A DNA stretch of 32,765 nucleotides from Patescibacteria group bacterium (GCA_041477655.1 JBGOUP010000003.1:1-32765); one strand, 5' to 3'; shown: positions 3,830-27,213, counted from the first letter of the stretch. Program-made: numbers and translations. The notes: generated by a model from the letters alone, not told the origin.

Positions 3830-5152
3830 CTAGCTTTTCAGTCTGTCAGCTATTTGTTGAGCCAGCTTTGGCATATTCGTAGGCTTCATACCTTGTGTTG
3901 TGATGGCTGGCGTGCCGATGCGAATACCAGAGGGGTTCATTGGCGAGGCTTGATCATAAGGAATAGCGTTTTTGTTGACAGTTATGCCAGCTTTTTCTAA
4001 ACGGTCTTGAGCCTCCTGACCAGTCAGTTTAAGCGGCCGTAGGTCAACCAGAAATAGATGATTATCGGTGCCGCCGGTAATAATTTCCAACCCATTTTTG
4101 ATTAGTTCATCGGCCAATTTCTTGGCATTTTGCTGAACCATTATCACATATAAGCGATAATGCTCCTGCAAGGCTTCCTCTAAACAAACACCGATGGCGG
4201 CGATGGTATTCATATGCGGTCCGCCCTGAATGCCGGGGAAAATAGCTCGATCAATGAGTTCAGGCAATTGACGGTTAGATTTAGAAATGAGTTCGGATTT
4301 CGCCTCTCGACCATTCGATGGGCTCATGGTCGTCTTGAGCGATGTCGAAAGACGACTTTGCTCGAGGCGACCTGAACGATGTTGAACGGTCGGATTTCGA
4401 TATTCGGATTTTCTTGAAAAGATCAATGCTCCTCGCGGCCCGCGTAGAATTTTATGAGTTGTTGTCATAACCACATCGGCGTTATCTGCCCCGAGCGGGC
4501 TTGTGGTGAGCGAAGTCGAACTTGTCGAAGGGCCAAAAGGTGTTGGATGTAAACCAGCCGCAATCAAGCCAGAAATATGGGAAATATCGGCTAAATGATA
4601 GGCGCCAACTTGATGAGCAATGTCGCTAATTCTTTGAAAATCAATTTCTCGAGAATAGGCCGAGGCACCAGAAATAATTAGTTTGGGCTTATGCTCTTTG
4701 GCCAGACGTTCAATCTCGTCATAGTCCAACAAGAAAGTTTTTGGGTCAACATGATAAGTAACGCGGTTAAATAATTTGCCGGAAATGGTCACTTTGTGAC
4801 CATGAGTCAGATGACCGCCGTGAGAGAGCTCCAGCCCCATGAATTTGTCGCCAGGCTCAAGCAATGCGTAAAAAATGGCTAAATTAGCGATTGAACCAGA
4901 ATAGGCCTGAACGTTAACGGCGTAATCGGTTTGAAAAACTTCTTGAGCCAGTTTTTTGACCTGGTTCTCTAGCTGATCAACAACGGCGTTGCCAGCATAA
5001 TAACGCTTGTCCGGATAACCCTCACTATATTTATTAGTGAAATCCGAAGCCAAAGCATCTTTAACCGCATCAGAAACGTAATTTTCCGAAGCAATTAAAT
5101 TAATCGTTGCTCTTTGCCGTTCTGATTCCTGCTTAATTAAATCTTTGATCAT
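3830..5152 (-). CDS. glyA: Serine hydroxymethyltransferase with two in-frame palindromic insertions
   Basis: Motifs LIASENY, NKYSEGYP, GGHLTHG, TTTHKILRGPRG (PLP lysine), FPGIQGGP, GTDNHL and SGIRIGTPA. Confidence 0.97.
   Translation of the reverse strand: MIKDLIKQESERQRATINLIASENYVSDAVKDALASDFTNKYSEGYPDKRYYAGNAVVDQLENQVKKLAQEVFQTDYAVNVQAYSGSIANLAIFYALLEPGDKFMGLELSHGGHLTHGHKVTISGKLFNRVTYHVDPKTFLLDYDEIERLAKEHKPKLIISGASAYSREIDFQRISDIAHQVGAYHLADISHISGLIAAGLHPTPFGPSTSSTSLTTSPLGADNADVVMTTTHKILRGPRGALIFSRKSEYRNPTVQHRSGRLEQSRLSTSLKTTMSPSNGREAKSELISKSNRQLPELIDRAIFPGIQGGPHMNTIAAIGVCLEEALQEHYRLYVIMVQQNAKKLADELIKNGLEIITGGTDNHLFLVDLRPLKLTGQEAQDRLEKAGITVNKNAIPYDQASPMNPSGIRIGTPAITTQGMKPTNMPKLAQQIADRLKS
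4275..4411. repeat. Nested palindromic and heptamer-repeat insertion inside glyA
   Basis: Direct repeat TCGGATTTCG (4293-4302, 4390-4399). Stems TCGCCTC/GAGGCGA (4300-4370), CGACCAT/ATGGTCG (4308-4332), TCGTCTT/AAGACGA (4330-4355) and CGACC/GGTCG (4368-4392). Confidence 0.8.
4488..4533. repeat. Nested palindromic insertion inside glyA
   Basis: The minus strand reads GCCCTTCGACAA[GTTCGACTTCGCTCACCACAAGCCC]GCTCGGGGC. The outer unit resembles CCCCTCGACTACGCTCGGGGC at 19420. Confidence 0.75.
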
Positions 5153-5212
5153 TCATGTTATTTTACTGGTAAATCAGCTAAAAAACGAGCCAATTGAGGT
5201 AAAATAGCGGTG

Positions 5213-5659
5213 ATGAAGCAAATTGCTTTCAATCGAAAAGCTTGGTTTGATTATTATATTTCCGACAATTTTGAAGCCGGGCTAGTTTTGGAGGGACCAG
5301 AAATCAAGGCCATTCGAGACAACCGGGTTAATATTTCAGGTAGCTACATTAAACCATTCGTCACAACCGATGGCGCAACCGAGCTGTGGTGGGTAGGTAG
5401 TCATTTCAATATTGATGGCGATCAGTCTCGAACCAAAAAACTGCTCATGCATCGCCAAGAGATAAATCGCTTGGCCGGAAAACTTACAGATAAGGGATTC
5501 ACCGTTATTCCGCTGGAACTCTACCTAAAGAATGGCATGGCTAAACTGAAAATCGGCTTGGGCGCAAGCAAGAAGAAGGAAGATAAGCGACAAGTGATTA
5601 AAAAACGCGAAACCGACCGAGAGATTCAGCGGAGATTGAACTCAAAAAAGAAAAGTTAG
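5213..5659 (+). CDS. smpB: SsrA-binding protein
   Basis: Motifs NRKAWFDY, FEAGLVLEGPEIKAIR, RTKKLLMHRQEI and DKRQVIKKRE. TAAAAT lies 7 nt before ATG 5213. Confidence 0.95.
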   Translation: MKQIAFNRKAWFDYYISDNFEAGLVLEGPEIKAIRDNRVNISGSYIKPFVTTDGATELWWVGSHFNIDGDQSRTKKLLMHRQEINRLAGKLTDKGFTVIPLELYLKNGMAKLKIGLGASKKKEDKRQVIKKRETDREIQRRLNSKKKS

Positions 5660-6540
5660 GGACTAGGGGTTGTGGTCGTTGGGCTGGAAGACGTCGTTCC
5701 GGCACTCTTCAGCTGTGTCTGGATGGCAACAATATCAGCTCTGGCTAATTTAAGCGAATCTCTGGCCTTGGTCATCAGTGCCTTGGCCTCATCAAATTTG
5801 GCTGTTTTAGAGTCACCGGCCGGAGTACCAGCGATAGTCTTGTAGATATCCAGCGCCTGGCCAACGGAAGTCTTAGCATCGGCTAAATGTTGATCCAGCG
5901 CAGTCGGGTCAGCTCCATCGGCTTTCCACTTGACCGAATCCTGTTGAACCTTATCAATCAAAACTTGGAGACGGATAGCGGCACAGAAACCAATATTGGC
6001 CGGCGAAAAGTTATTAAATATTTGATTCTTGTCGAACAGTTCTTTGATGATAGTTTTAGCCCCGTCAACAGTGGTGGCGGCATCCAGCCTGGTCTTCTCG
6101 TCTTTGAGATTGGTTTCGATAGTTGTGATATTGGCTAAGTAGGCCGCTTTCATATCGGTTGAGATACCGTCGCAACGCTCGCCAGGCAGTTTTTTAAGCC
6201 GATCAATTACCTGAAGTCGAACGGCAATGAGTTTATCACCTAAGCGTTTCAACTGGGCTAATTTTTTCTGCTCGTTTTCCTGTTTTCTAGCGGCGACTTT
6301 GTCTTGATCGGCCGCGGTCTTAATGGTTTTATAACTCTCCAGTTCCGTTGTTGCATCCTTTAGGCCAGTGGCAAACTGTTTGCTAAATGATTGGATGCTC
6401 ACAGCCGTTGTTTTTGTTGGGGTTGTGCTATCAGTCGAACTCTGGCCGCTTGTCTGAGCCAAAGCTGGCGATCCGTTGACTCCACTCACAAACCAAGCTA
6501 CCAGACCCAATAAAAGAGCCAAACTAAAGATCGGGCGCAT
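5656..6540 (-). CDS. Secreted alpha-helical/coiled-coil hypothetical protein
   Basis: Signal-peptide-like N-terminus (MRPIFSLALLLG...ALAQ), Thr/Ser linkers and a long helical body. The start is uncertain (6540-6567). Confidence 0.75.
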   Translation of the reverse strand: MRPIFSLALLLGLVAWFVSGVNGSPALAQTSGQSSTDSTTPTKTTAVSIQSFSKQFATGLKDATTELESYKTIKTAADQDKVAARKQENEQKKLAQLKRLGDKLIAVRLQVIDRLKKLPGERCDGISTDMKAAYLANITTIETNLKDEKTRLDAATTVDGAKTIIKELFDKNQIFNNFSPANIGFCAAIRLQVLIDKVQQDSVKWKADGADPTALDQHLADAKTSVGQALDIYKTIAGTPAGDSKTAKFDEAKALMTKARDSLKLARADIVAIQTQLKSAGTTSSSPTTTTPSP

Positions 6541-6832
6541 TGTCATTTGTTGAAGAGTTATCCTCACTAATAATGCTTAGCTCTTGATCAAGTTGGGAAA
6601 GCGAGCTGTCAATTTTGGCCTGATCAGACGAATCGGTAGTAGTAACGGCCGGTGTGGTCAGTGTGGTCGGCGTTGTCGTTTGACCGGTCTTATTCTGACC
6701 GTTCTGCAAATATAGCCAGGTGGCCAAACCTGCCACCAAGACAATAATTAATACCGCCACCAGCCAAGGGGCGACTTTTGAAGGCGGCGCTTCCGGTATA
6801 ATTGGTTGCGATTGCTGTGGAACTTGATCCAT
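6524..6832 (-). CDS. Small single-pass membrane protein with Thr-rich linker
   Basis: One TM helix; TTGACA-17-TAATCT promoter ends 7 nt upstream of the ATG. Confidence 0.8.
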   Translation of the reverse strand: MDQVPQQSQPIIPEAPPSKVAPWLVAVLIIVLVAGLATWLYLQNGQNKTGQTTTPTTLTTPAVTTTDSSDQAKIDSSLSQLDQELSIISEDNSSTNDNAPDL

Positions 6833-6839
6833 CTATTCC

Positions 6840-6868
6840 AGATTAGTTTGACAATCAGAGCCTGTCAA
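6840..6868 (-). promoter_or_regulatory. sigma70-type promoter, leaderless configuration
   Basis: TTGACA (6868-6863), 17 bp spacer, TAATCT (6845-6840), then 7 nt to the ATG. Confidence 0.7.
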
Positions 6869-6870
6869 CT

Positions 6871-7782
6871 TTACTCGTTCACGTCCATCGTCAGCATGTT
6901 GGCCATCAGCGCCCACCAATCTGATTGAAACGAATATCCGACACCAGTAGTGTGTGAAGCGAAGGTGTACTGGCCGGATCCATAATCTTCCAGATGAAAG
7001 TTGAGCGGTACTAAACTGTTGTCACGGGCGGCGACCAGGCCAATTAAAACCCTTGAACCTTGGGGAATTTTTCCGTTAGCCAAATCAAACAGACTGGGAT
7101 TGTTAAAGGTGACGGTCAAGCCATAGCTGGTGCCGTTATCGGTCTCCTGCTTGTTACAGATTTTAACGCTCAACTGGTCGGTCTGGTAATCTTTGACCAT
7201 CACTTGAGTTATTATTGCCGCGTTATTACCAAAAAATGCGTCTAGATCAGCTTTTTCTGTTTGTTGGCTGTATTTTTGAATACTAATGTAGATCGTGTCA
7301 GGCAACAGTTCGCCACTCGGTAGCCAAAAGGCCGCGTGCAGGCTGGTTGTTGACTGTATAAACGTATTTTGAGAAACGGCAGCGAAAATCTGATCACTTG
7401 GCTGAACGACGATTGCTCCGTCATAGCCGTAATAACCAGGCTGGCCGTATCCCGACTGCCCACAGCTATCCAAACTTTGGGAATGTTTCTGGGAGCCGTT
7501 GGATTGCTCGCTGGCACTCAATGTTTGTCCGATAATTCCGGAATTAGTGCTTGGTAAAATGTTGGAAACAACTAATTTATCTTGACTATGCTTGGTGATC
7601 GGTGGAACGACGACTTTGATCGACCCCGCCTTAAACTCATTGGGTTTCTCTAGAGATAATTGATTGGCCTGTAACGGCTGCGATTGTCTGACGGCCGCCG
7701 CGAATACGCCCAACCCACCCAGGGCCAACAAAGCCAGAGCAATTACCAGCCACGGGATGAAACTAAGTTTAGTGTCGTGCAT
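6871..7782 (-). CDS. Membrane-anchored hypothetical protein
   Basis: 303-aa ORF with an N-terminal TM helix and GGAGG upstream of the ATG. Confidence 0.75.
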   Translation of the reverse strand: MHDTKLSFIPWLVIALALLALGGLGVFAAAVRQSQPLQANQLSLEKPNEFKAGSIKVVVPPITKHSQDKLVVSNILPSTNSGIIGQTLSASEQSNGSQKHSQSLDSCGQSGYGQPGYYGYDGAIVVQPSDQIFAAVSQNTFIQSTTSLHAAFWLPSGELLPDTIYISIQKYSQQTEKADLDAFFGNNAAIITQVMVKDYQTDQLSVKICNKQETDNGTSYGLTVTFNNPSLFDLANGKIPQGSRVLIGLVAARDNSLVPLNFHLEDYGSGQYTFASHTTGVGYSFQSDWWALMANMLTMDVNE

Positions 7783-7827
7783 CCCCTCCAGGCAAGGCTC
7801 TCAAACCTAGCTGATCCTGTCAAACTG

Positions 7828-8202
7828 TTACTGGATTGCGTCCAGTTTCCAAGTGATGGCGTCGCTGGCCTTAGTTACATAGCTACCGGCGCCAACGTCA
7901 GAAATTTTATCGTTAACATAGAATGCCCAGAAATGCTGACTGTCTGGCGTAACGCTATCAATTGACTGGACAAATTCGCCATAACTGGAGGTTTGAGTTT
8001 GCACTTTGTGGCTGGCTTTTAACAGATCCAGGGCGTTTTGGCCTTCAACTCCTTGATAACTAAAAGCCGGTGACTGACTAGTGCTTGAAGCGGGATTGGT
8101 GGTTTTAACTGGCGGCTTATGGGCCAACAAATAAATACCGAAAACCAAAATAATTACCCCGATAAATGTAGTGGCTGTTAAGCGAAATTTTGTGTTATTC
8201 AT
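7828..8202 (-). CDS. DUF4430 (transcobalamin C-terminal-like) domain membrane protein
   Basis: NALDLL...YGEFVQSIDS...FWAFYVND...VGAGSY pattern plus an N-terminal TM. Start 8202 follows TTGACA-17-CATAAC. Confidence 0.8.
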   Translation of the reverse strand: MNNTKFRLTATTFIGVIILVFGIYLLAHKPPVKTTNPASSTSQSPAFSYQGVEGQNALDLLKASHKVQTQTSSYGEFVQSIDSVTPDSQHFWAFYVNDKISDVGAGSYVTKASDAITWKLDAIQ

Positions 8203-8305
8203 TCTTTGGTTATGGTGATTCTTCACTGACTTGTCAACAGTTGTGTTAAATTCTCCAAATTACAGGTAGAATTTGACCAATGATTGGGTCAAAAATTTCC
8301 GCTAA

Positions 8306-9412
8306 ATGTCGTTAGAGGTGGGTATCGTCGGATTGCCAAACGTTGGTAAATCGTCGCTGTTCAATACCCTGACAAAGGCCGGCGCTCAAGCAAGCAATTT
8401 CCCCTTCACTACTATCGAGCCCAATGTGGGTATTGTAGAAGTGCCAGATGCTCGGCTTAAATTTCTTAGGGAAACCTATCAGAGCGCCAAAACAATCCCC
8501 GCCACCATAAAATTTGTTGATATTGCCGGCCTGGTTAAAGGCGCATCGGCTGGCGAAGGTTTGGGTAATCAATTTTTGAGTCACATTCGTTCGGTTGATG
8601 CCATTGTCGAGGTGGTTCGGGTTTTTGACGACGCCAATGTCATTCATGTGGCTGGCCAAGTCAATCCAGACGAAGATATCTCAACCGTTAATACCGAACT
8701 GTTGTTGGCCGATTTAGAGCAAGCTCAAAAAGCTCTGGAACGTTTAGAGAAAAATAAAAAGCCAAGCAGTACCGATGCTCATTATTACTTATATGCGATA
8801 GGAGAACGCTCCGCGATAATGAAGACTAGTTTGGAAAAAGCCATTGAACTGTTTAACCGGGGTGAGCCGCTACGAACTCAACCAGAGCTAGCAATAGAGC
8901 TCAAGCAATTTCAGTTTTTGACGGCTAAACCCTTGCTCTACGTGGCCAATGTTGGTGAGACGGTAGATCAAGCCAAACTGGAACAAATCAATGCCCACGC
9001 TCAAAAGGAAAATGCCACTGTTATTGCCATATCGGTCAAAGCCGAACTGGAAATCGTTGATCTGCCGGAAGCTGAACAAGCTGAATACAGAAAAGAATTG
9101 AGCTTAATATCCGGGCTGGGTCAAGTTATCCAAGCTAGCTACGCTTTATTGGATTTAATTACCTTTTTTACTGCCGGGCCTAAAGAATCGCGTGCTTGGA
9201 CGATTGCTCGAGGCGCCAAAGCTCCCCAAGCCGCCGGCGTTATCCACACCGATTTTGAGCGTGGCTTTATCCGAGCACAAGTCTTCAACGTTGAAGATCT
9301 GCAAAAATATGGTAGCGAAAAAGCCGTCAAAGAAGCTGGCAAACTTCGTAGCGAAGGCAAAGATTACGTCGTTCAGGATGGGGACGTTGTCGAGTTTTTA
9401 TTTAACGTCTAA
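8306..9412 (+). CDS. ychF: Redox-regulated ATPase YchF
   Basis: Motifs GIVGLPNVGKS, FPFTTIEPN, DIAGLVKGAS, APQAAGVIHTDF and EGKDYVVQDGDV. Confidence 0.97.
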   Translation: MSLEVGIVGLPNVGKSSLFNTLTKAGAQASNFPFTTIEPNVGIVEVPDARLKFLRETYQSAKTIPATIKFVDIAGLVKGASAGEGLGNQFLSHIRSVDAIVEVVRVFDDANVIHVAGQVNPDEDISTVNTELLLADLEQAQKALERLEKNKKPSSTDAHYYLYAIGERSAIMKTSLEKAIELFNRGEPLRTQPELAIELKQFQFLTAKPLLYVANVGETVDQAKLEQINAHAQKENATVIAISVKAELEIVDLPEAEQAEYRKELSLISGLGQVIQASYALLDLITFFTAGPKESRAWTIARGAKAPQAAGVIHTDFERGFIRAQVFNVEDLQKYGSEKAVKEAGKLRSEGKDYVVQDGDVVEFLFNV

Positions 9413-9415
9413 TTC

Positions 9416-9444
9416 TTGATTTCTCCAAAAGTATTAGATATACT
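9416..9444 (+). promoter_or_regulatory. sigma70-type promoter
   Basis: TTGATT (9416-9421), 17 bp spacer, TATACT (9439-9444). Confidence 0.65.
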
Positions 9445-9493
9445 GACTTGGCAGTTGTTATTTAACATTGCCAAATCAACGAAGGAGGAGGAT

Positions 9494-10441
9494 GTGGAAA
9501 ACATTGTCACCAAGCTCTATCGGCAAAAGGCTAAGCTTATGCCGCCTTTATCCAATTCTGCCCAGGCACTTTTGGGCGCTTTCGACTGGCCGGTGACTAT
9601 CGGGCTACTAACTTACTTATTAGCTCGGTTTTGTTGCGGGCTTTGGGATTACCGAACGGATATTTATGGAAATTGGGTGAATTACGAAGTAGACGGTTGG
9701 GAACTAACTTTCGTTGCGACAGCTGGATCTTTAATCACTGTTTTATTCTACTCTTTCTCGGAGTATTATAGTGAACCAAGATGCTTGCCGAAATTGGCAT
9801 TGTCTTGGCTGTTTCATTTAGTCGCCCAAACTGCCCGAAATCTTCATCTAAAACGGATTGATCCCAACGATCCAACCATTATCGTCACAGCGATCGACTA
9901 CTTGCAAGATACCGTTATAGCCAAAAAGCAATCGGTTATTGGGCAGATTGAGAAACAAATTCAGGAAGCTCAAAGTGGCCACAATCTACTGGCTCCAATT
10001 ATTAATGACCTGGACGCCCAACTCAAAGAAGAATCTGTTAATTCGAGCATAGTTGACCTTCGTCGGGCTCGACTCGATCAGGCTAGAAACAATGACCAGG
10101 TTCTGGACAAGCATCTTGGCTTTCTGGCAGAGAAAAAAGAACAAGCTCAATCAGCAGTCAAGCCCTGTTTGGAGTTAGCCAACCAACTCAAAGCCAATTT
10201 TGAAGTGGCAGTCCAGATTGAGGTGATTGGTCGGACAGCCAATCAGGTCGCCCGAGTTCCTAATGAGCAGGAATTGATCGAACGGTCGCTCAACGAACTT
10301 CGCGATTTAGTGCTGTCGGCCACCGACCAGCTACTAGATATTGAGCTACAGGCCAATAGCTCAATCGCCGCTCATATGGAAATGGGCGTTGATCCTAATA
10401 TCAGAGACGAAGAAGGTCAGAAATTAAAACTTCGCCAGTAA
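9494..10441 (+). CDS. Hypothetical membrane protein with C-terminal coiled coil
   Basis: GTG 9494 is preceded by AAGGAGGAGG. There are 2-3 hydrophobic segments followed by a Q/E/L-rich helical region, and the gene has its own promoter and terminator. Confidence 0.75.
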   Translation: MENIVTKLYRQKAKLMPPLSNSAQALLGAFDWPVTIGLLTYLLARFCCGLWDYRTDIYGNWVNYEVDGWELTFVATAGSLITVLFYSFSEYYSEPRCLPKLALSWLFHLVAQTARNLHLKRIDPNDPTIIVTAIDYLQDTVIAKKQSVIGQIEKQIQEAQSGHNLLAPIINDLDAQLKEESVNSSIVDLRRARLDQARNNDQVLDKHLGFLAEKKEQAQSAVKPCLELANQLKANFEVAVQIEVIGRTANQVARVPNEQELIERSLNELRDLVLSATDQLLDIELQANSSIAAHMEMGVDPNIRDEEGQKLKLRQ

Positions 10442-10459
10442 GCTGGACAAAAAAAATCT

Positions 10460-10491
10460 AACCCGCTACCGGAAGGTAACGGGTTCATTTT
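10460..10491. terminator. Intrinsic terminator, probably bidirectional
   Basis: AACCCGCTACC-GGAA-GGTAACGGGTT hairpin with an A-run before and a T-rich tract after, between convergent genes. Confidence 0.7.
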
Positions 10492-10587
10492 ACTCTAAAA
10501 ACTGATTTCGGGCTTAGTCAGGAAATTAAAACAATTCCAGAGTTCTTCATGTGATATATGACATAAAGAATCAGCCAGCCGATTTCT

Positions 10588-11265
10588 TTAGAAATTCAAC
10601 AGATCGTGATGAGCTTTGAGCCACTTTTCCGCTTCTTTATAGCGAGGGCAGTAATCTTCAACTAACCGCCAAAACTTTTTTGAGTGGTTCATGTTGGTCA
10701 GATGAGCTAGCTCATGGTAAATAACATAATCGCTAACAAAATCCGGTGCCATAATTAGCCGCCAATTTAAAGAAATAGTCGAGCGGCTGGAACATGATCC
10801 CCAGCGAGTTCGTTGGGAGCGAATGGTCACATTTTTTAGATCTTTTGCAACCAAGTCCGAGAGCAGTGGCAATCGTTCTTCAAAATGTTTTTTGGCTTCA
10901 ACGCGATACCATTTTTCTAAAACCGTTCTGACAGTTTGATGATCTTCGTTACGTGCGTGAACAATCAGTTCGGTTTTTGTTCGTTCAACTTTTTCTCTGG
11001 CAATCGTGTTAACAGTCAAGCGAAATTGAAATTCATGACCCCGAAAAAACAGCGTTGAGCGGGAATCGGTCAGCTCGTTTAGTTTAGCTAAAACCGTGGA
11101 TCGTTTTTGGCTAATCCATTCCCCATTTTCAGCCACGAAGTTGTTTATTAGCAATTGAGGGGTAAATCGCGGTGCTGTCACCACCACCCTACCGTCAGGG
11201 TAAACCCTGATACGCAAATGCCGTGCCGTAGACAAACGCTTCACCTCCCAAGATGACTCGTCCAC
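10588..11265 (-). CDS. YgjP/DUF45-like (M48-related) zinc metalloprotein
   Basis: Motifs QRTRWGSCS, LNWRL and YVIYHELAHLTNMNHSKKFW (HExxH). Confidence 0.9.
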   Translation of the reverse strand: MDESSWEVKRLSTARHLRIRVYPDGRVVVTAPRFTPQLLINNFVAENGEWISQKRSTVLAKLNELTDSRSTLFFRGHEFQFRLTVNTIAREKVERTKTELIVHARNEDHQTVRTVLEKWYRVEAKKHFEERLPLLSDLVAKDLKNVTIRSQRTRWGSCSSRSTISLNWRLIMAPDFVSDYVIYHELAHLTNMNHSKKFWRLVEDYCPRYKEAEKWLKAHHDLLNF

Positions 11266-11274
11266 TGTTGTGTG

Positions 11275-11490
11275 CTAGTAGAGAGAGTTGGTGGTGCTAC
11301 CGGAACTGGCGTTTTTGTTGTGGTAGTAGTACCAGATACCACCGTAAACCACGATAGCAATAACCAGATAGATCAAGATCCATTTCCACATACTGCCTTT
11401 TTTGCCATAGCCTGATTGGTCAGTGGCAGGCTGGGACTGGGCGGGCATGGCTGGCTTGGTCTGATCTGTATTCTGTTCTTGTTCTTCCAT
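11275..11490 (-). CDS. Small single-pass membrane protein
   Basis: WKWILIYLVIAIVVYGGIWYYY TM segment; TTGACA-17-CAGGCT ends 6 nt upstream. Confidence 0.75.
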   Translation of the reverse strand: MEEQEQNTDQTKPAMPAQSQPATDQSGYGKKGSMWKWILIYLVIAIVVYGGIWYYYHNKNASSGSTTNSLY

Positions 11491-11647
11491 AACCCCAGCC
11501 TGACAAAAGATAAATTAGTTGTCAAATTGTTGCGCGCTCGACCATGAGCTGTGAATACTTGGAAAAGCGAACTGAAGCTTCTACTTTTGCTAAAACTGCT
11601 CGGGCAAAAGTAACGAAGCGAGCGGAACCGGCGATCCCTCTAATCTG

Positions 11648-11721
11648 CGCAGTGGACGGGACTCGAACCCGCGACCCCCGCCGTGACAGGGCGGTGCTCT
11701 AACCAGCTGAGCTACCACTGC
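11648..11721 (-). tRNA. tRNA-Asp(GTC)
   Basis: Reverse complement is a cloverleaf, GCAGTGGTAGCTCAGCTGGTTAGAGC...CTGTCAC...GGTTCGAGTCC...CCACTGCG. No encoded CCA. Confidence 0.95.
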
Positions 11722-11780
11722 AAGGCTCTTGAACCAGGAAGTTCCCCGTCATTGTAACAGATTGGCAGTGGGTATTGAAC

Positions 11781-11862
11781 GGCTGATGGCTGATAACTTA
11801 AAACCGAAAACTAAATTCTAAAAACTGAATACTGATTTCTGAAAACTGATAACTGAATACTG
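11781..11862. repeat. Degenerate heptamer tandem repeat (about 12 copies, consensus AACTGAW)
   Basis: ggctgat ggctgat aacttaa aaccgaa aactaaa ttctaaa aactgaa tactgat ttctgaa aactgat aactgaa tactg. Confidence 0.8.
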
Positions 11863-11863
11863 T

Positions 11864-12886
11864 CTATATCTTGATATATCGGTAAATTTTGTACTTGTTG
11901 GAGGTTTGTTTGAACCAATCTTCATAAGTTTGAGGATTATCGCCGGTTCGTTCGGTCACTTGAATTATATGGTAACCAAACTGCGTTTGGACGGGATCGG
12001 ACACTTTATTGACAGCCAAACTAAAAGACGCATCCTCAAAGGCCGGGGCAATCTGGGCGGCCAACTCGCCCTTTCGCCAGTAGCCGAGATCTCCGCCACT
12101 ATCCTTGGTTTGGGCATCTTGGCTGAATTCCTTAGCCACTTGGCCAAAATCCTTACCGCCATCCAACTGCTTTTTGGCCTGAACGGCCGCGTCTTGAGTT
12201 GAAGTTAAAATATGGCGAACCTTGACCCGGGTCAGGACAACATTCTTAACCTTTTCTTTGAGCACTTGCTCGGCAATAATTTGTTTGAACTGGGTTAGGT
12301 TCATATCGTAGAGTTGCTTAATTTTTTTTTCGATATCAGCCGGCTTGCCCTGTTTGTCAAAAGCTTTATTGAGCTCGTCTTGGCTAACGTTGATACCCCT
12401 GGATTGGGCTTCCAGATAGATGACCTTGTCTTCGATTAATCCCTCCAAGACTCGTGTTCGGAGATCTTTATCGGTGGGAATTTTACTAGAGACATCTTTT
12501 GGCCCTTGAGTGTTGAAAGTCGTTAGGAAATGTAACCGCTCTAAAAACTTATGACCCCAAATAAAGGTGTTATTAACCCGCGCCGCTGGTAAAGGATAAA
12601 GATTGGTTAGATTTCGAGTAAAAGTGGATTCCGAGTGCTTGGAGTAGAGAAGAACCACTCCGCTAACACCAAAAATAAAGTAAAAAGCCAAGATAAAGCT
12701 GGCGATGTCAATAAAGATAGTGGCCGGATTTAAGGCGTGGCGACGGACTAAAGCTCGAACAAATGGGATTCGTAGCTGCAACCATCCCCAAGCGTTCTCA
12801 TAGATATGCACCAGGAGCCGACCAAACCACATCAAGCCATCCCAGATTGATGTTAAAAAAGCCGTAAGTGGGGAAAGTTTGCCCAT
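11864..12886 (-). CDS. Parvulin-type peptidyl-prolyl isomerase (PrsA/SurA-like foldase)
   Basis: Motifs VKVRHIL, FGQVAKEFSQD, GGDLG and PVQTQFGYHII, with a SurA-N-like region and TM anchor. Confidence 0.9.
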   Translation of the reverse strand: MGKLSPLTAFLTSIWDGLMWFGRLLVHIYENAWGWLQLRIPFVRALVRRHALNPATIFIDIASFILAFYFIFGVSGVVLLYSKHSESTFTRNLTNLYPLPAARVNNTFIWGHKFLERLHFLTTFNTQGPKDVSSKIPTDKDLRTRVLEGLIEDKVIYLEAQSRGINVSQDELNKAFDKQGKPADIEKKIKQLYDMNLTQFKQIIAEQVLKEKVKNVVLTRVKVRHILTSTQDAAVQAKKQLDGGKDFGQVAKEFSQDAQTKDSGGDLGYWRKGELAAQIAPAFEDASFSLAVNKVSDPVQTQFGYHIIQVTERTGDNPQTYEDWFKQTSNKYKIYRYIKI

Positions 12887-13425
12887 ATCAGTGTGCCTAG
12901 TACCAGGATAACAGCCAAAGAGACAAAAATGAAATGGGCCAAGACCGATTGGTTAGAACCGCCCTCCTTAATTTTCAGATAGTACCAGAGAGCGTAAAAG
13001 AACAGGAAGGTAATCAAGGCCCGGTTGAAAAAACTAAACGGCCAGAAAACAACTACCGAGCTCACTTCCGTCGTCGCTAAACTTATTAGAAACCAATTGA
13101 CAAGCGTTTGTCGGTTCAGACTTTGTTGGTCAATTAAACCGGCTGTTAGGCCAATGACGTTGATTGAGCCAAATACAATAATGCTTGCCAATAGTGGCGA
13201 TGATAATTTTATGTAACTAAAATTGGCTAGGACAAGACTAAACAAGACGGCGCCGACCAATGGCAGATCAATTTTTTTTAGCCAGACCATAAACACCATC
13301 AATACCCCGGCTACAAGAAGGGCTAGCCTGGCGGCTGGGCTAGGAGTATACGGCCAAATAACTATGAGGCTGGCAATAGGCACTATGGCGAAAAAAATAA
13401 CCGGCCAATGAAGGCGACGAAGCAT
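12853..13425 (-). CDS. Multi-pass membrane protein
   Basis: About 6-7 hydrophobic segments; lies between the LCP and PPIase genes on the same strand. Confidence 0.8.
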   Translation of the reverse strand: MLRRLHWPVIFFAIVPIASLIVIWPYTPSPAARLALLVAGVLMVFMVWLKKIDLPLVGAVLFSLVLANFSYIKLSSPLLASIIVFGSINVIGLTAGLIDQQSLNRQTLVNWFLISLATTEVSSVVVFWPFSFFNRALITFLFFYALWYYLKIKEGGSNQSVLAHFIFVSLAVILVLGTLIWANFPHLRLF

Positions 13426-13429
13426 AGAG

Positions 13430-14794
13430 TTACTTTAAGCGGTAGTCGTTGCCGATGACAAGTACAATGTCTGCCTGATCAACTCGACTGGCAGTCGTGC
13501 CGACGATTGGCGTCAAATTGAAGCGTCGTTTGAGCAGAGCCAGAGTATATGGTTTATCGGTGTTGTAATAATGGAGGGCGCTCTTCTTTTGAAGGGAAGC
13601 AGTAGTGGTGCTGGTAATAGTATAATCATAGGCTTTTAGTTTAGCACTAACGGATTTACCAATGGCCTCACTGCCGCTGGCGTTGACTATAGCAACCTTA
13701 GCCTTTTCCCTGATTAGGTACGGTTCCGGCAGGAAGGAAGCAACGTAGTCTTGTAGGTCGCGATAATCGCTCACACCAAGTTTGGGAAAAATAATATAAC
13801 CAGCGGCCGGATCGTTAGTGGAGCGGAGCGGCGAGTCGGGATTAGTGTCTAATACCTTACCTGAAGTGCCCTCGCTGGTGATTTTCTTAACTATGGCTAG
13901 GATTTGTTTGGAATCGTCGATACTAATGTCGGTTCGAAGGTGGCCACCCAAAATCGAGAAGAGATCAGAGATTTTTTTTGGGTTAGTTAAGACGTTAAGA
14001 CTTAAGACCTTGTCCTTGGCGACTGAAATAATCTGTTGCTGGCGACGGGATCGGTCAAAATCACTGGTAGTTTCTCGACTTCGAGCATATTCCAAAGCCT
14101 TTTTGCCGTTGAACGTTTGTAGGCCAGCTGGAAAATAGACCGGCGCGTAGCCTTTCTCGGCTGCGTCGGGGAAGAATGGGTCGTTCAGGGGTTTATCAAC
14201 GTAAACCTGAATTCCATTGATGGCATTAATAAATTGCTCGAAACCCTGGAAATCAACTCGGGCGTAGAAATGAATAGGAATACCCATAATCCCTGCCACT
14301 GTGGTTTTTAGGGCGTCGGCGCCGGCGTCGCTTTTGGGATCGCAGTTCTTTTTATTGGCCTGGCAGATGCTGTTGGCGGCGTTGTAGACAGCGTTTATCT
14401 TAGCCTTGCCACCCCCAGGCTGATTAACATAAAAATCTCGGGGAAGCGATACCGTTACAACTCGTGAATTAACTGGGTCAATTGAATAAACTTCCAGCGA
14501 ATCGGTTAGACCGGCGGCTTGATCAGCGCCGATCAGTAATACATTAATTCGACCATCGCCCTCTCGTTTAAGCTGATCGGGAGGGATGTCACCAGTGAAT
14601 TTAAAAAACGATGGTTCCTCGCTATTATTCTTGGCCGAGATGTTGTGGAAAGCGGCCAGACCGCTAAAAGTTACCCAAGAAATGACGCCAACAATCAAAA
14701 CCAAAACTCCCCAGAGAAAAAGTCGCCACTTTTTATGTCGCGACTGATTGAGAGCCGACACTTCTTTGCTGGGTTTCTTGCGTCTAAACAACAT
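13430..14794 (-). CDS. LytR-CpsA-Psr (LCP) family protein with LytR C-terminal domain
   Basis: Motifs INVLLIGAD, SLPRDFYV, KINAVY, ALEYARSR, DFDRSRRQQ and IVNASG...DIVLVIGNDY. Probable start is ATG 14794. Confidence 0.92.
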   Translation of the reverse strand: MLFRRKKPSKEVSALNQSRHKKWRLFLWGVLVLIVGVISWVTFSGLAAFHNISAKNNSEEPSFFKFTGDIPPDQLKREGDGRINVLLIGADQAAGLTDSLEVYSIDPVNSRVVTVSLPRDFYVNQPGGGKAKINAVYNAANSICQANKKNCDPKSDAGADALKTTVAGIMGIPIHFYARVDFQGFEQFINAINGIQVYVDKPLNDPFFPDAAEKGYAPVYFPAGLQTFNGKKALEYARSRETTSDFDRSRRQQQIISVAKDKVLSLNVLTNPKKISDLFSILGGHLRTDISIDDSKQILAIVKKITSEGTSGKVLDTNPDSPLRSTNDPAAGYIIFPKLGVSDYRDLQDYVASFLPEPYLIREKAKVAIVNASGSEAIGKSVSAKLKAYDYTITSTTTASLQKKSALHYYNTDKPYTLALLKRRFNLTPIVGTTASRVDQADIVLVIGNDYRLK

Positions 14795-16814: not shown

Positions 16815-16839
16815 ATCGTTCTTTATTTTCCACTAAATT

Positions 16840-16871
16840 GCCGCCGGGTATCGCCCAGCGGCTTTTTCTTT
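16840..16871 (+). terminator. Intrinsic terminator
   Basis: GCCGCCGGG-TATCG-CCCAGCGGC followed by TTTTTCTTT. Confidence 0.75.
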
Positions 16872-16926
16872 ACCTTCAAACCCCCGATCTAAGCTAGTCG
16901 AAAGGTGGAATTGTCGAATTTTAACT

Positions 16927-16962
16927 AAAAGAAAAAGACCATCAGTATCTTATCTGATGGTC
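16927..16962 (-). terminator. Intrinsic terminator
   Basis: GACCATCAG/CTGATGGTC stem with a T-tract on the minus strand, downstream of the gene ending at 16977. Confidence 0.7.
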
Positions 16963-16976
16963 GGGGTTAGAGATTA

Positions 16977-17564: not shown

Positions 17565-17804
17565 AAATTCCCCTCCTTATAGCTTTTAGATATTACTCAA
17601 TAATTGATGAGAAGTCAATAGGCGGGAAATAATGGTGAATTCAAGACCTAACGCACCACCTAAGATAAAATAAGCGGAATCAGAAAGGTGGTGCATTAAA
17701 TTCTTGAATTCATCTAAAACGTCACGGTCTTGATTTTTATATCTAGTAGTGGTATAAATAACCCGCACGCAATTTGCGTAGTACCCATAAATTTTGGTGT
17801 TCAT

Positions 17805-18539
17805 TTGGAAAAACTATTTCTCGTTTTCTTCGTTTGTCTCATCTTTGGTTGTGCTTCACCCGTCAGACAACAACAAACGTCAACTTATTCAACTTCTGGC
17901 GATTCTGCCCATTGGTTTAGAGCCGATGGAACGATCAACTGGGAAGCCGAAAAACAAGAAAAGAAAATCCCAACCGATCATGTCATCTTCCACCACACAT
18001 CTGGTCGGGCTAACCGTAGCCTAGACGAGTTGTCGAATCTAGAGCGTGAGCGTCTTTATGTCCCACGCTTTAATCCTTCTATCCCCGATCCAAACATTCC
18101 CAAAGGAACGCTGGTTCAATCTGGCCACTACCGAAAGATTAACAGCGAAAGAGCTCAAGTATTTTACGCCTACCATTGGTTGATTAGACAGGACGGCAAA
18201 TGCGAACAGTTACTCAATGACGACGAAGTTGGCTGGCATTGTGGCAATTGGGATATGAATAACAGATCCATCGCCATCTGCTTTGACGGCAACTTGGTTG
18301 GCTCAAAACCAACTGACCAACAGTATCGAGCCGCCGCCGCTCTATTAGCTGCCTATATGGCCAAATACAAAATCACCGCGGGGAATGTTATGGGACACGA
18401 CGATGTGGTTGCTACCGACTGTCCAGGAGAGTGGTTCAAAGCTGGGGGTAAAGACAAGCTTATCCAACTAGCTGTCAAACCTGATCAGTGGGTCAAATAC
18501 AAATCAGTTTACGATCAAGTTCTATCAAAGAAGCCTTGA
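17805..18539 (+). CDS. N-acetylmuramoyl-L-alanine amidase (Amidase_2/PGRP-like), probable lipoprotein
   Basis: Motifs VIFHHT, YHWLI, GWHCG, NNRSIAICFDGN and GHDDVVATDCPG. Lipobox IFGC. Upstream promoter TTGATT-17-TATAAA (17730-17758). Confidence 0.9.
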   Translation: MEKLFLVFFVCLIFGCASPVRQQQTSTYSTSGDSAHWFRADGTINWEAEKQEKKIPTDHVIFHHTSGRANRSLDELSNLERERLYVPRFNPSIPDPNIPKGTLVQSGHYRKINSERAQVFYAYHWLIRQDGKCEQLLNDDEVGWHCGNWDMNNRSIAICFDGNLVGSKPTDQQYRAAAALLAAYMAKYKITAGNVMGHDDVVATDCPGEWFKAGGKDKLIQLAVKPDQWVKYKSVYDQVLSKKP

Positions 18540-18553
18540 GCTTCACTCAACTA

Positions 18554-18588
18554 ATGCCCGTAGTATTGTGCTACGGGCATTTTTCTTC
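18554..18588 (+). terminator. Intrinsic terminator
   Basis: ATGCCCGTAG/CTACGGGCAT stem followed by TTTTCTT. Confidence 0.8.
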
Positions 18589-18610
18589 ACCCTCAAGGCT
18601 AATATAATTG

Positions 18611-18682
18611 CTCCCGGGCTTGGATTCGAACCAAGAATCTCCTCCTCCAAAGGGAGGCGTCCAACCGTTAGACGACCCGGGA
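18611..18682 (-). tRNA. tRNA-Gln(TTG)
   Basis: Reverse complement reads TCCCGGGTCGTCTAACGG...CTTTGGA...GGTTCGAATCC...CCCGGGAG. No encoded CCA. Confidence 0.93.
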
Positions 18683-18890
18683 ATGTCGCTATGCGACAGT
18701 CATATTGTACCAACTAACTGGTCGGCTGTCAGGAGTTCTGGGTCAGTAATCGTAGATTTCACTTATCCGGCCAAAAATAGCTCTTTACAGAGCGTCTTTT
18801 CGCTATCTGACTTCGCTCATAGCAGAAACGCTCCCAATTGGGAGCGTTTCTGGAAGCCGATAATCAGCTTTCAGCCTCATCCGACTTAAC

Positions 18891-18914
18891 AAAAAACAGC
18901 TCCTTGCGGAGCTA
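18891..18914 (-). terminator. Terminator of rnpB
   Basis: AGCTCC-GCAA-GGAGCT followed by GTTTTTT on the minus strand. Confidence 0.75.
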
Positions 18915-18920
18915 TCTTCT

Positions 18921-19534
18921 GGAGGTCGGTAAGCCGGGTTCTGTTCCGCCTCCGCCAAATGGCGGATAAGCGGATAACAACCATCAATCTACGCGACGGG
19001 CTAACTAGTTGCCTCTAGAAGAGAGTTGACTCAAATGGTCGAATTGCTTCGATAACGAGTCGCAACCAATTATCCATCCCGTCTTGCACCACGCCGGGTT
19101 TTGCCGCTCGCTACTATTGCTAGAGCGATTGTGGGCTCTTACCCCACTCTTTTCACCATCACCACCGCTGCTCCGCAGCGGAATTACCAATTAACAATTT
19201 CTAATTTTCAAATAATTTCCAATTATTCAATTTCCAAACTTAAAAATTGGGTCATTGATTATTACTTGAGAATTGAGACTTGAAAATTGATACTTCCAAT
19301 GCGAAGCATTGGTTAGGCAGTATTGTCTCTGTGCCACTTTCCCGCGTCTTGCGACGGCCGGCCGTTAGCCGGGGCGCTATCTAAGGTGCCCGGACTTTCC
19401 TCAAACCAACGTCAGTTAACCCCTCGACTACGCTCGGGGCAAGACAGTTTTCAGTTATCAGCAATCAGTTGAAACTGAATACTGAATACCGATCCACTGA
19501 TCTCTGTCCGAAGGATTGCGATTGTCTCGACTTC
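18921..19534 (-). ncRNA. rnpB: RNase P RNA with large insertions
   Basis: The minus strand carries GAGGAAAGTCCGG (19402-19390), GGAAAGTGGCACAGAGAC, GGTGAAAAG and 3' ACAGAACCCGGCTTA. P1 pairing GAAGTCG/CGACCTC. Confidence 0.93.
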
Positions 19535-19540
19535 GCCACA

Positions 19541-19568
19541 ATCTTAGCATTTATTTGGCAGAAGTCAA
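19541..19568 (-). promoter_or_regulatory. rnpB promoter
   Basis: TTGACT, 16 bp spacer, TGcTAAGAT extended -10, about 7 nt before the predicted 5' end. Confidence 0.65.
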
Positions 19569-19631
19569 TGGCTGGAACCATATCTTTGTAGGACTTGACA
19601 ATATTGAAGTAGATAGGCGTATAGTTAAGGC

Positions 19632-19813
19632 AGAGAAAACTAAAAACTTCGCGTCCTATGGCTAAATAGAGGCAATGAATAGCGATTTTGAGCTATGCCA
19701 AGCTGGGTATGCTTGGGAAGCCGCTTGTAAGCGGCTATGGAACGACGAAGTACGGTCGGAAAAACAGTCGGGGTAGTGTGCTTTGCTCTCCTTTCGGCAC
19801 TACCCCACTTTTT
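19632..19813 (+). ncRNA. Putative structured small RNA (unit 1); may encode a 33-aa peptide
   Basis: TTGACA-19-TATAGT promoter, several internal stems, and a terminator hairpin with T-tract. Confidence 0.45.
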
Positions 19814-24969: not shown

Positions 24970-25533
24970 TTGGGATCTTCAGTGAGCAATAAGGAACTTA
25001 GAGTAAACTCGGAAATTACGGCTAGCCAAGTTCACTTGATTTTGAACGACGGTCAATCCCGAGGCACGGTTTCTATTAATGAAGCCCTTCAAGCGGCTCA
25101 CCAAGCCAACCTTGACCTGGTTGAAATTAGCCCCAAAGCCGAACCACCCGTTGTTAGAGTTATTGACTACAATAAGTTTCGCTATGAGCAGGAGAAACGT
25201 TCTCGTCAATCAGCGAAATTGGCTAAAAACCCCCAACTTAAGGAAATTCGCTTAAGCTATGGGATCGGAGCTCACGACTTAGAAACTAAAGCCAGACGGG
25301 CCAAAGAATTTCTTGAGGCAGGCAACTTTGTTAAGGTCTATATTCAGTTGCGGGGCCGCCAGAACATTTTCCCCCAAATTGCTCGAGGAAACCTAGAAAA
25401 CTTCCAGAAAGTACTTGACGCTGATCTCGAGCAAGAAATTAGCCACATCGGTAACAGAGTTTCATTAGTTATTAAAACCAAAAGAAATGTCAAAAAATTG
25501 GAAAACTTAGATGCCCAAGAGAGAAAAACTTAG
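24970..25533 (+). CDS. infC: Translation initiation factor IF-3
   Basis: Motifs LDLVEISPKAEPPV, DYNKFRYE, LKEIRL and LRGRQ. Start codon uncertain (non-ATG). Confidence 0.95.
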   Translation: MGSSVSNKELRVNSEITASQVHLILNDGQSRGTVSINEALQAAHQANLDLVEISPKAEPPVVRVIDYNKFRYEQEKRSRQSAKLAKNPQLKEIRLSYGIGAHDLETKARRAKEFLEAGNFVKVYIQLRGRQNIFPQIARGNLENFQKVLDADLEQEISHIGNRVSLVIKTKRNVKKLENLDAQERKT

Positions 25534-25594
25534 ATGCCCAAGATAAAAGAATTTAATGCCTAAAAGAGAAATACTTAGATGCCCAAGATAAAAA
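25487..25594 (+). repeat. About 23-bp tandem reiteration of the rpmI start region
   Basis: ATGs at 25487, 25511, 25534, 25556 and 25579; ACTTAGATGCCCAAGA occurs three times exactly. Confidence 0.85.
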
Positions 25595-25779: not shown

Positions 25780-25785
25780 AACACC

Positions 25786-26145: not shown

Positions 26146-26928
26146 CTACAAGCGTTTAAATTTAGAGCTTGGCCACTTGGTTTTAATTGTTTTCAACCAG
26201 CCTACGATTGGTTTCTGGTTAACTTTAGGCCCGTGGGTTTGCCAAAAAAGACCATAGACACCGATAATTAGGATTAAGTAACTAACCGCTTCAACTTGAG
26301 ATAGACCTTCGCCAAAATCGGATTTGAATGTTTTAAGTACGAGTTGGCCCAGAAACAGACCCTCGAGAGCCAAAAAGAAAGCAATTCCGTCGTTGATCTT
26401 TTTTTTCTGCCAGCTAGCCAGCAAGATTAGATATAAGCCTATTGCCCAAATGGAAGCGAATAGATCAACTGGATAAGCTCCATTAATCGTTAGAAAGGTT
26501 CCAGGTCGTCCAAGCGAGCAACCAGACAAGACGCAACCGACATTTCCCGTACCCCACGCTAGCAGAAATGCTAGAACCCCGATATCTAACCATTTCCAGA
26601 TTGAGTCGCCTAGTCTAGCTACCTGGTAATAGTACATGGCAAAGCCGGCGGCAATGCCCGTCAGAGCCAGTAACCCGCCTTGCCAGAAAAAGAAAATTTG
26701 GGCCAGGCTTTGGAACTGATGTTGATAGGCGAAATAATAGCCGATTCTGGCGCCAATCAGGCCAGCCAGAAGGGTATAGAGGAAGGTGTCGAATATATAA
26801 CTGGTTTGAAGGCCCCGTGATTTGGCTGCCATATAGGCAAAAAGACCAGAAAGAATGGCTCCAAGGGCGATAAACGAACCGAAGGAATAAAGCTTGAATC
26901 TTCCGATCTCAAGTAAAATTGGGTTCAT
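26146..26928 (-). CDS. lgt: Prolipoprotein diacylglyceryl transferase (divergent)
   Basis: Motifs MNPILLEIG...YSFG, GLIGARIGY, WQGGL and GNVGC..GC..GRP. Confidence 0.82.
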   Translation of the reverse strand: MNPILLEIGRFKLYSFGSFIALGAILSGLFAYMAAKSRGLQTSYIFDTFLYTLLAGLIGARIGYYFAYQHQFQSLAQIFFFWQGGLLALTGIAAGFAMYYYQVARLGDSIWKWLDIGVLAFLLAWGTGNVGCVLSGCSLGRPGTFLTINGAYPVDLFASIWAIGLYLILLASWQKKKINDGIAFFLALEGLFLGQLVLKTFKSDFGEGLSQVEAVSYLILIIGVYGLFWQTHGPKVNQKPIVGWLKTIKTKWPSSKFKRL

Positions 26929-26995
26929 CTAAAGATAGCAACAGTTTGCCAGAGGCTTGAGTCAAAGTCAAGCCAGGAGTATGATTTTGCAGATT

Positions 26996-27069
26996 GGGCT
27001 CGTAGCTCAGCTGGTTAGAGCGTTCGGTTCACATCCGAAAGGTCAGCCGTTCAAATCGGCTCGAGCCCA
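26996..27069 (+). tRNA. tRNA-Val(CAC)
   Basis: GGGCTCGTAGCTCAGCTGGTTAGAGC, anticodon arm TTCGG-TTCACAT-CCGAA, GTTCAAATC, CGAGCCCA. No encoded CCA. Confidence 0.93.
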
Positions 27070-27213
27070 CACTTTGAGTTGTTTAGCTCCCTCGGTAAAC
27101 TGATGGGAAGAAGTGACTCGAACTACTCTAGAGCGACGAACGGAATGAGGAGTCGAAAAGCCTGAAATATCCCACTATCTCTCCCACCCACACTTCGCTA
27201 CAATACAAAAACA

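Follow-up and report, generated by a model that had tools for sequence, protein, structure and literature searches.

A dispersed 24-nt hairpin module with the properties of inserted DNA in a Patescibacteria genome and beyond

The stretch of DNA analyzed here (32,765 nt, hereafter the window) is one contig (JBGOUP010000003.1, our C11) of a Patescibacteria group bacterium (GCA_041477655.1, genome G000), whose assembly comprises 748 kb in 48 contigs and is about 94% complete. A preliminary description, made from the sequence of the window, had proposed a dispersed family of mini-hairpins with a conserved TCGA-N3-4-GCTC core and variable stems. We find that this family is built on a unit of 24 nt, made of a 4-nt pyrimidine arm, a 12-nt loop (TCGAC-NNN-GCTC), a complementary 4-nt purine arm and a 4-nt tail. 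The sites are probably copies of a selfish DNA mobilized in trans, that is, of a very small non-autonomous module recognized through its loop. The tails of the 20 strict copies in the genome were TAAA (6 copies), CGAC (5), CAGG (3), CAAG (2) and four others found once each, and a 21-nt variant of the unit was also present.

The enrichment of the core over chance, a test proposed in the preliminary description, did not hold within the window (4 matches for 1.54 expected, a count reached by 7 of 100 shuffled sequences) but was found at the level of the genome. Indeed, the 748 kb contain 98 cores, as compared with 37 (order-1 Markov model) or 51 (order-3) expected. Of these 98 cores, 24 were closed by a perfect, directly abutting stem of 4 bp or more, as compared with none of the swapped-core (0/64) or reversed-core (0/59) controls. 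A census of perfect hairpins (stem of at least 5 bp, loop of 7-16 nt) gave 6891 hairpins in the genome, among which TCGA...GCTC was the commonest pair of loop ends (16 occurrences; 8 for the next pair). The strict pattern YYYYTCGACNNNGCTCRRRR (YYYY-TCGAC-NNN-GCTC-RRRR) matched 20 times and its reversed version never. The stems of these 20 copies were fully Watson-Crick in 17 cases, and all 20 were paired when T.G was also accepted. Genome-level counts, controls and stem pairing thus support the view of the repeat as dispersed and non-coding, its core being conserved while its stems co-vary. No Rfam family matched the hairpins at E up to 1 (11 loci).

Two candidate features of the unit were tried and rejected. 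The first, a stem copied from the target flank, was suggested by hairpin A of the window (Table 1), whose 5' arm re-uses the loop of the outer unit; it was discarded, since every stem starts with 4 pyrimidine/purine pairs and both arms lie inside the insertions of DnaK and valyl-tRNA synthetase (ValRS). The second was another way of folding the unit, in which a T is bulged out and CGA/TCG forms an inner helix; since the CCCC/GGGG variant alone can adopt it, it is not general.

The site at the LGWP codons of ValRS provides our best evidence that the module is mobile and that it has some preference of target. An assembly-wide all-against-all blastn search for allelic pairs yielded a single useful pair, formed by the ValRS genes of contigs C16 and C41 (86% nucleotide identity over 1324 bases, C16:1-1771 against C41:1-2200). 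The two differ by exactly 48 nt, located between GGCTGG and CCCGAT, with no duplicated flank. In C16, these 48 nt are one 24-nt unit within the loop of another, in sense orientation, and they add 16 residues that were absent in 12 of 12 relatives (first set). At the LGWP codons, 11 sequences were empty and three genomes were filled (G000, G013 and G015). G013 carries a single 24-nt unit in sense orientation, and G015 a single 24-nt unit in the opposite orientation, with the tail leading. Two genomes of the genus that includes G013 and G015, namely G002 and G010, have the site empty. Such a pattern of occupancy requires no fewer than two independent events, at positions that agree to within 2 nt. 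As these junctions show, new copies are added precisely, without target-site duplication. Altogether, absence from orthologues, the filled/empty ValRS pair and the occupation of one site in both orientations support the earlier proposal that the module behaves as inserted DNA.

Two other insertions are found in the window itself, in frame within glyA, the only serine hydroxymethyltransferase (SHMT) gene detected in the assembly. Alignment with a solved structure (PDB) located the extra residues at positions 208-223 and 251-293, and both insertions were absent in 18 of 18 aligned relatives. Residues 255-290 were spanned by the match of no relative, every matching relative having its match split there. 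In insertion 1, the inner module (AAGT TCGAC TTC GCTC ACCA CAAG) has a decayed stem and is placed after the TCGAC of the outer module. This insertion ends 10 residues before the TTTHK motif, which holds the lysine that binds pyridoxal phosphate. Insertion 2 belongs to a dispersed repeat of about 70-120 nt. By blastn, positions 4292-4412 of the window match C27:1507-1627 (90%), C32:166-232 (91%) and C40:6096-6163 (82%), the last of these copies lying between long open reading frames (ORFs). Parsed by eye, insertion 2 would be a split outer unit holding two inner hairpins, A and B. An AlphaFold model of SHMT was built on a 12-sequence alignment (mean predicted local distance difference test score, pLDDT, of 73.6; predicted template modeling score of 0.78). 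The pLDDT fell below 50 at residues 210-221 and 253-291, within both insertions, and also in four other short segments; in the insertions such low values are partly expected because the alignment had no homologues for those residues.

Contigs from four sediment metagenome runs containing the organism were compared with positions 3600-19700 of the window (organism depth roughly 3-5x). The only contigs covering insertion 1, from three runs, show 4 differences from the window in a segment of 32 nt (4489-4520), three of them synonymous by reading and one changing Ala to Thr. No difference was found in the next 152 nt. These clustered differences may have arisen by conversion of one repeat copy by another, or may mark a hot spot at this place.

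Table 1. Modules and related features, with positions in the window unless a contig is named.
Feature	Position	Strand	Remarks
glyA (serine hydroxymethyltransferase), 440 aa	3830..5152	-	Pfam SHMT, E 1.4e-140, match in two stretches
SHMT insertion 2, ~129 nt / 43 aa	4274..4402		composite of nested modules
Outer 24-nt module CCTC TCGAC ... TTT GCTC GAGG CGAC	4303..4371	+	split 4303-4311 / 4357-4371 by inner hairpins A and B
Inner hairpin A	4308..4332	+	7-bp stem CGACCAT/ATGGTCG (4308-4314 / 4326-4332), loop TCGATGGGCTC
Core TCGATGGGCTC	4315-4325	+	N3 variant, loop of inner hairpin A
Inner hairpin B	4329..4356	-	8-bp stem GTCGTCTT/AAGACGAC (4329-4336 / 4349-4356), loop TCGACATCGCTC
Core TCGACATCGCTC	4337-4348	-	loop of inner hairpin B
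SHMT insertion 1, 48 nt / 16 aa (PSTSSTSLTTSPLGAD)	4484..4531	-	two nested 24-nt modules
Core TCGACTTCGCTC	4508-4519	-	flanking stem 2 bp only
Decayed intergenic copy	18802..18823	+	between tRNA-Gln and RNase P RNA gene; stem GCTAT/ATAGC, loop C-TGACTTCGCTC
Off-consensus core TGACTTCGCTC	18808-18818	+	stem 5 bp, 18802-18806 / 18819-18823
RNase P RNA (bacterial class A), 514 nt	18914..19427	-	Rfam RF00010, 135 bits
Canonical 24-nt module CCCC TCGAC TAC GCTC GGGG CAAG	19420..19443	+	
Core TCGACTACGCTC	19424-19435	+	stem 4 bp, 19420-19423 / 19436-19439
Degenerate heptamer run (CAGTTAT / TGAATAC)	19445..19489	+	tandem repeat finder; directly 3' of the canonical module
Decayed copy, absent from the preliminary list	19520..19543	+	6-bp stem GATTGT/ACAATC, loop C-TCGACTTCGCC; single-stranded DNA fold z -1.8
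IS200/IS605-type element	C27:38790-39167, C19:1-330, C20:1-330		at least 2 copies, breaks assembly

Five of the six sites initially listed in the window are copies, with their cores where they had been placed (Table 1). The sixth, described as an interrupted copy at 27131-27156, has no flanking stem, folds no better than shuffled sequences (z +0.87) and was rejected. Short closing stems of variable sequence were confirmed at four sites, as abutting arms of 4-8 bp, but the copy at 4508 has 2 bp only. Folded as single-stranded DNA (ssDNA), hairpins A and B gave -5.8 kcal/mol (z -3.1) and -5.6 kcal/mol (z -1.9), respectively; copies with arms of 7-8 bp are thus stable ssDNA hairpins. The intergenic site at 18802..18823 is called a copy on sequence likeness only, because its fold is no better than that of shuffled sequences (z -0.2).

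The module was also found in other conserved genes of the genome. DnaK has 10 extra residues and LepA about 15, in each case absent in 13 of 13 relatives, and further copies are present in PrmC and in a pilin-like ORF. In total, at least 9 in-frame copies were counted in 7 conserved genes of G000, and in G007, G013 and G015 25 of 44 copies fall within ORFs of at least 120 aa. The unit is exactly 8 codons long and its constant part is stop-free in every frame. It is translated as P-S-T-x-L-G or L-D-x-A-R-G, or in antisense, so that at least two frames and both orientations are used. A doublet formed by a module and a decayed inverted partner (about 48 nt) was observed in antisense in several ORFs of G013 and G015 (loci L318, L322-L324 and L329), where it encodes near-identical peptides of type LPQGQGDPE(R/Q)SRGA.

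An association with heptamer repeats and structured RNA had been noticed in the window, and both parts of it hold. The canonical module directly precedes the heptamer run at 19445-19489, and the ensemble recurs elsewhere: by blastn, positions 19417-19495 match C37:4644-4718 and 19431-19469 match C17:24095-24133. In a cyanobacterial metagenome-assembled genome (MAG), a 24-nt unit interrupts a CAATTAC heptamer (locus L153) without disturbing its phase. The module said to lie in a ribozyme does touch the RNase P RNA gene, but it overlaps only the first 8 nt of the match (P1 5' strand); it is therefore located at the edge of the gene and not in the catalytic core. G015 has a pair of modules inside its RNase P RNA gene, directly beside the conserved ACAGAACCCGGCUUAC segment.

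The P12 region of the RNase P RNA contains an insert of a different repeat family, which is AT-rich and about 150 nt long. This insert (19179-19297) matches contigs C38, C10, C21, C17 and C15 by blastn. Repeats of this type measure about 75-150 nt and consist of units resembling GAAAATTG. The ValRS gene of C16 has a version of 75 nt that the gene of C41 lacks, and LepA of G000 (C35) has at residues 65-94 a similar insert, which it shares with G004 and G007.

Nesting is recurrent. A 24-nt unit lies within the loop of another on C17, as in ValRS and in SHMT insertion 1. New copies often land within the loop of an existing copy, giving nested mosaics of 48-130 nt. Units also land within heptamer repeats and at a few recurrently targeted gene sites.

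The module is not restricted to G000. Strict matches were obtained in 32 of 61 genomes of the class, with 0-20 copies per genome, for a total of 3 matches with the reversed controls. Within genera the distribution is patchy (13, 13, 0 and 0 copies in the genomes of one genus), which is typical of mobile DNA. A cross-phylum scan with the pattern CCCCTCGACNNNGCTCGGGG, using one genome per species, returned at least 124 loci, some of them in isolates; judged by record titles, the loci represent at least 15 phyla. Among the matches listed, the free loop letters are biased toward T-N-C (T in first position in 98 of 134, C in third position in 89 of 134) and the tail toward Y-R-A. Chance matches would lack such a bias. 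Matches outnumbered those of the reversed control in the cyanobacterial MAG (21 against 0), a Novosphingobium isolate (24 against 0), a Flavivirga isolate (37 against 0) and a complete Berkelbacteria genome (6 against 0). In Novosphingobium the modules form inverted pairs about 80 nt apart, and the cyanobacterial MAG contains a tandem array with a 31-nt period (24+7). Viral contigs contained 64 matching stretches, whereas the reversed pattern gave 4; the highest number of copies on a single contig (35 kb) was 7. Plasmids were also searched: blastn with L153 gave only short partial matches to six cyanobacterial plasmids, and the N. punctiforme plasmid pNPUN01 contained no match to the pattern.

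An artifact of chance or composition, in which a short degenerate motif was chosen post hoc and its stems were seen by eye, would fit the non-significant count in the window and the one listed site that is not a copy. It is already refuted by the genome-level controls, the relatives, the viral control and the biased loop and tail letters, and we give it practically no weight.

Conservation of the loop across phyla, together with compensated stem transitions passing through T.G intermediates, is also what would be seen in a structure under selection, possibly at the level of RNA. The hairpin could then be a functional cis-element (a binding hairpin, a terminator or an mRNA-stabilizing stem-loop) maintained by selection, its insertions being a by-product of recombination. 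Some copies in other phyla do extend to long stems followed by runs of T, as terminators do (e.g. L053), and two copies of G000 directly follow tRNA genes (C6:3189 and C9:6815). However, in-frame copies in SHMT, DnaK, LepA and ValRS are unexpected for a regulatory element, as are self-nesting and the presence of both orientations at one site. The copy number moreover varies from 0 to 20 between genomes of one family and from 0 to 13 within a genus, and Rfam contains no matching family at the threshold given above. We consider a cis-element unlikely.

If the sites are copies of a mobile module, the activity that copies it would act in trans and be encoded outside the window. Recognition would depend on the conserved loop and also on the stem, in which the only variation is by compensated transitions. 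Insertions in coding DNA presumably survive because the unit amounts to 8 codons with a stop-free core; they would persist in SHMT, DnaK, LepA and ValRS as surface loops of 8 or 16 residues, probably unstructured. At the edges of RNase P RNA, modules would likewise persist as extra sequence.

The preliminary description had seen no transposase in the window, and a domain search of the window genes agreed with this. It had proposed, as one example, that a RAYT/HUH enzyme acts in trans, which the following data do not support. The only Y1 transposase of the genome is a multicopy IS200-type gene of about 140 aa, found at three contig ends. The ends of this element carry their own, unrelated hairpins (CCACGGAC-GTYA-GTCCGTGG). 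Over the 61 genomes, Y1 and the hairpin were both present in 18, the hairpin alone in 14, Y1 alone in 10 and neither in 19. This co-occurrence is weak (odds ratio of about 2.4, chi-square of about 2.9, with kin that are not independent). Indeed, G013, G015 and G040 have 12-13 copies and no Y1 match, and G055 and G027 have 8 and 7 Y1 matches, respectively, and no hairpin. Copies flanking a transposase gene had also been suggested as a check, but in four copy-rich genomes a module was located within 1.5 kb of only 1 of 18 Y1 loci.

These observations bear directly on the possibility that the module is an element of the REP (repetitive extragenic palindromic)/REPIN type, moved on single-stranded hairpin DNA by RAYT or another Y1 HUH transposase. 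Enzymes of the IS200/IS605 HUH type insert without target duplication, as seen here, a Y1 transposase is encoded in the genome, and the inverted pairs of Novosphingobium are REPIN-like. The hairpin with its 4-nt tail also resembles tagged REPs as these are described in PMC3733652. On the other hand, besides the weak co-occurrence, the unrelated IS200 hairpins and the near absence of modules at Y1 loci, the copies show no preference for a replication strand, and neither the stems nor a GTAG or CGTC tag are conserved. Movement by such an enzyme is thus improbable.

The lack of a linked transposase in the Y1 tests suits another mechanism, namely copying through an RNA/cDNA intermediate or by template switching during replication or repair, with no dedicated transposase. 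Precise insertion without duplication, tolerance of T.G (G.U-like) pairs in the stems, insertion into the loops of existing copies and into slippage-prone heptamer arrays, and the [24+7]-nt tandem arrays of period 31 in the cyanobacterial MAG are all consistent with it. It leaves the identity of the loop across phyla unexplained, however, and we assign it a low probability.

Several observations weigh against mobilization of a selfish module in trans. No enzyme could be linked to the module among the Y1 genes tested over the 61 genomes and at the 18 Y1 loci. No target motif is shared among the few junctions mapped. The bias toward the coding strand is inconsistent (10 of 11 copies in sense in G000; 9 in sense and 16 in antisense in G007, G013 and G015 taken together), and orientation was not biased with respect to the replication strand on G007:C2, a 629-kb contig with a clear skew switch (10 versus 7). 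The lengths of the insertions in DnaK (30 nt) and in LepA (about 45 nt) do not divide evenly by 24, and two copies in PpsA lie in hypervariable linkers, where an insertion cannot be called. The minimal unit alone is not a stable ssDNA hairpin (z of about -0.3 to -0.6); it is therefore the covariation of the arms that argues for structure. In the contigs of the four sediment metagenome runs, no joint skips either SHMT insertion. A search of metagenome contigs with SHMT found no close relative (best match, 75% identity). The ValRS genes of C16 and C41 could be paralogues, or derive from two binned populations, rather than alleles, and all empty sites except that of C41 are orthologues from other genera. 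Neither a transposition event nor an empty allele in a near-identical strain was seen.

Among known elements, the small dispersed repeats (SDRs) of the cyanobacterium Nostoc appear to be the nearest kind, compared by description and not by consensus sequence. SDRs reportedly have units of 21-27 nt and encode no protein; they are also said to be associated with tandem heptamer repeats and to insert within other repeats. The present module falls within this size range and is non-coding, with 20 strict copies in G000. Like SDRs, it is found at or in heptamers (19445-19489, the CAATTAC repeat of L153 and the 31-nt array) and nested in itself. SDR5 measures 21 nt (PMC13756078) and inserts between nt 3 and 4 of HIP1 (PMC4390886), so that precise insertion at a defined spot would be common to SDR5 and the module. 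According to PMC5861425, no SDR-like repeat has been reported outside Nostocaceae, to which SDRs would be confined, whereas the 24-nt module occurs in the Candidate Phyla Radiation (CPR), in at least 15 phyla and on viral contigs. In addition, the module is in frame within essential genes.

REPs and Rickettsia palindromic elements (RPEs) appear more distant than SDRs. As described in PMC3733652 and PMC3116915, REPs are short, palindromic and multicopy, often arranged as inverted pairs, with compensatory stem changes and G.T pairs, and some are intragenic. The module is likewise palindromic and multicopy, with compensated stems and T.G pairs. REPs, however, carry a GTAG or CGTC tag that is conserved, stems specific to each family and loops mostly of 2-5 nt, whereas the module has a conserved 12-nt loop, variable stems, varied tails and no RAYT gene flanked by modules. 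REPs are also mostly extragenic, unlike the module with its in-frame copies in G000 genes. The initial label of REP-like thus holds as an analogy only, a conserved tag and stem and a module-flanked RAYT gene being absent. RPEs, as summarized in PMC10969869, are inserted in frame in unrelated housekeeping genes and translated as an extra peptide. The module resembles them by its in-frame presence in housekeeping ORFs (SHMT at two sites, DnaK, LepA and ValRS). RPEs measure about 100-150 bp, belong to Rickettsia and encode a conserved peptide, whereas the module has 24 nt, is read in at least two frames and both orientations, and occurs in many lineages. Finally, MITEs (transposable elements of the miniature inverted-repeat type) and palindromes derived from IS200/IS605 are also non-autonomous, hairpin-forming and multicopy. 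The module differs from them by its size (about a tenth), by the lack of terminal inverted repeats of a parent insertion sequence, by the absence of target-site duplication at the ValRS or L153 junctions and by its dissimilarity to the end hairpins of the resident IS200-type element.

In the literature searched, which excluded subscription papers and supplements, no description was found of a family with a conserved loop or of such protein insertions in CPR bacteria; a string search with the core and peptide motifs returned nothing relevant. New here are the exact 24-nt unit, its self-nesting, the filled/empty pair, the site occupied in both orientations and the negative tests of Y1 transposases. 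The single description of SDRs comes from heterocystous cyanobacteria, to which citing work restricts them; the module extends this size class to CPR bacteria, many phyla and viral contigs. It also offers a handle on what moves elements far too small to contain transposase-binding ends, and the LGWP site of ValRS and the culturable, copy-rich isolates of Novosphingobium and Flavivirga are possible assay systems. For annotation and for protein evolution, eight-residue cassettes close to the lysine of the SHMT active site, and within DnaK, LepA and ValRS of an organism with so small a genome, could be mistaken for lineage-specific protein features. A broader proposal, which we put forward tentatively and with some doubt, is that most bacterial phyla and their viruses have in common one hairpin cassette of 24 nt, which may be the smallest class of mobile DNA. 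It would be moved by a widespread activity other than RAYT/IS200 that prefers hairpin loops and a few palindromic sites. With its length of exactly eight stop-free codons, it would generally supply essential proteins and structured RNAs with small loop insertions, even in genome-reduced CPR bacteria.

The gene content of the window is typical of ultrasmall CPR/Patescibacteria, with the housekeeping genes SHMT, SmpB, YchF, TsaE, UvrA, IF3, L20 and a Def-Fmt fusion, three tRNAs and the RNase P RNA. The genome is a MAG of the CPR/Berkelbacteria type, and the complete Berkelbacteria genome is among the hairpin matches (L154). A cyanobacterial origin, which the heptamer repeats in the RNase P RNA might suggest, was rejected on gene content and genome size. 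The Def-Fmt fusion (30637-31989) is a single ORF of 450 aa that joins peptide deformylase and methionyl-tRNA formyltransferase domains. The end of the window (32325-32765) overlaps C4 at 94.8% by blastn, and several contig ends overlap others at 83-98%.

Other repeats were observed in the window and the genome. A heptamer array of about 10 CTGAAAA-like copies (11790-11862) lies beside tRNA-Asp, and a 23-nt tandem repeat (3.8 copies, 25502-25588) spans the end of infC and extends into the spacer before rplT. Another dispersed repeat of G000 is apparent from 10-mers of type TATATGACAT / ATATGACATA, which occur 19-21 times for less than one expected. Finally, Rfam detected a group I intron (84.7 bits) at G000:C1:510-713. 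A tRNA-like 3' end lies a short distance downstream of it, at about C1:730-757. This contig contains no rRNA, and hairpin modules follow at a distance of no more than 150 nt.

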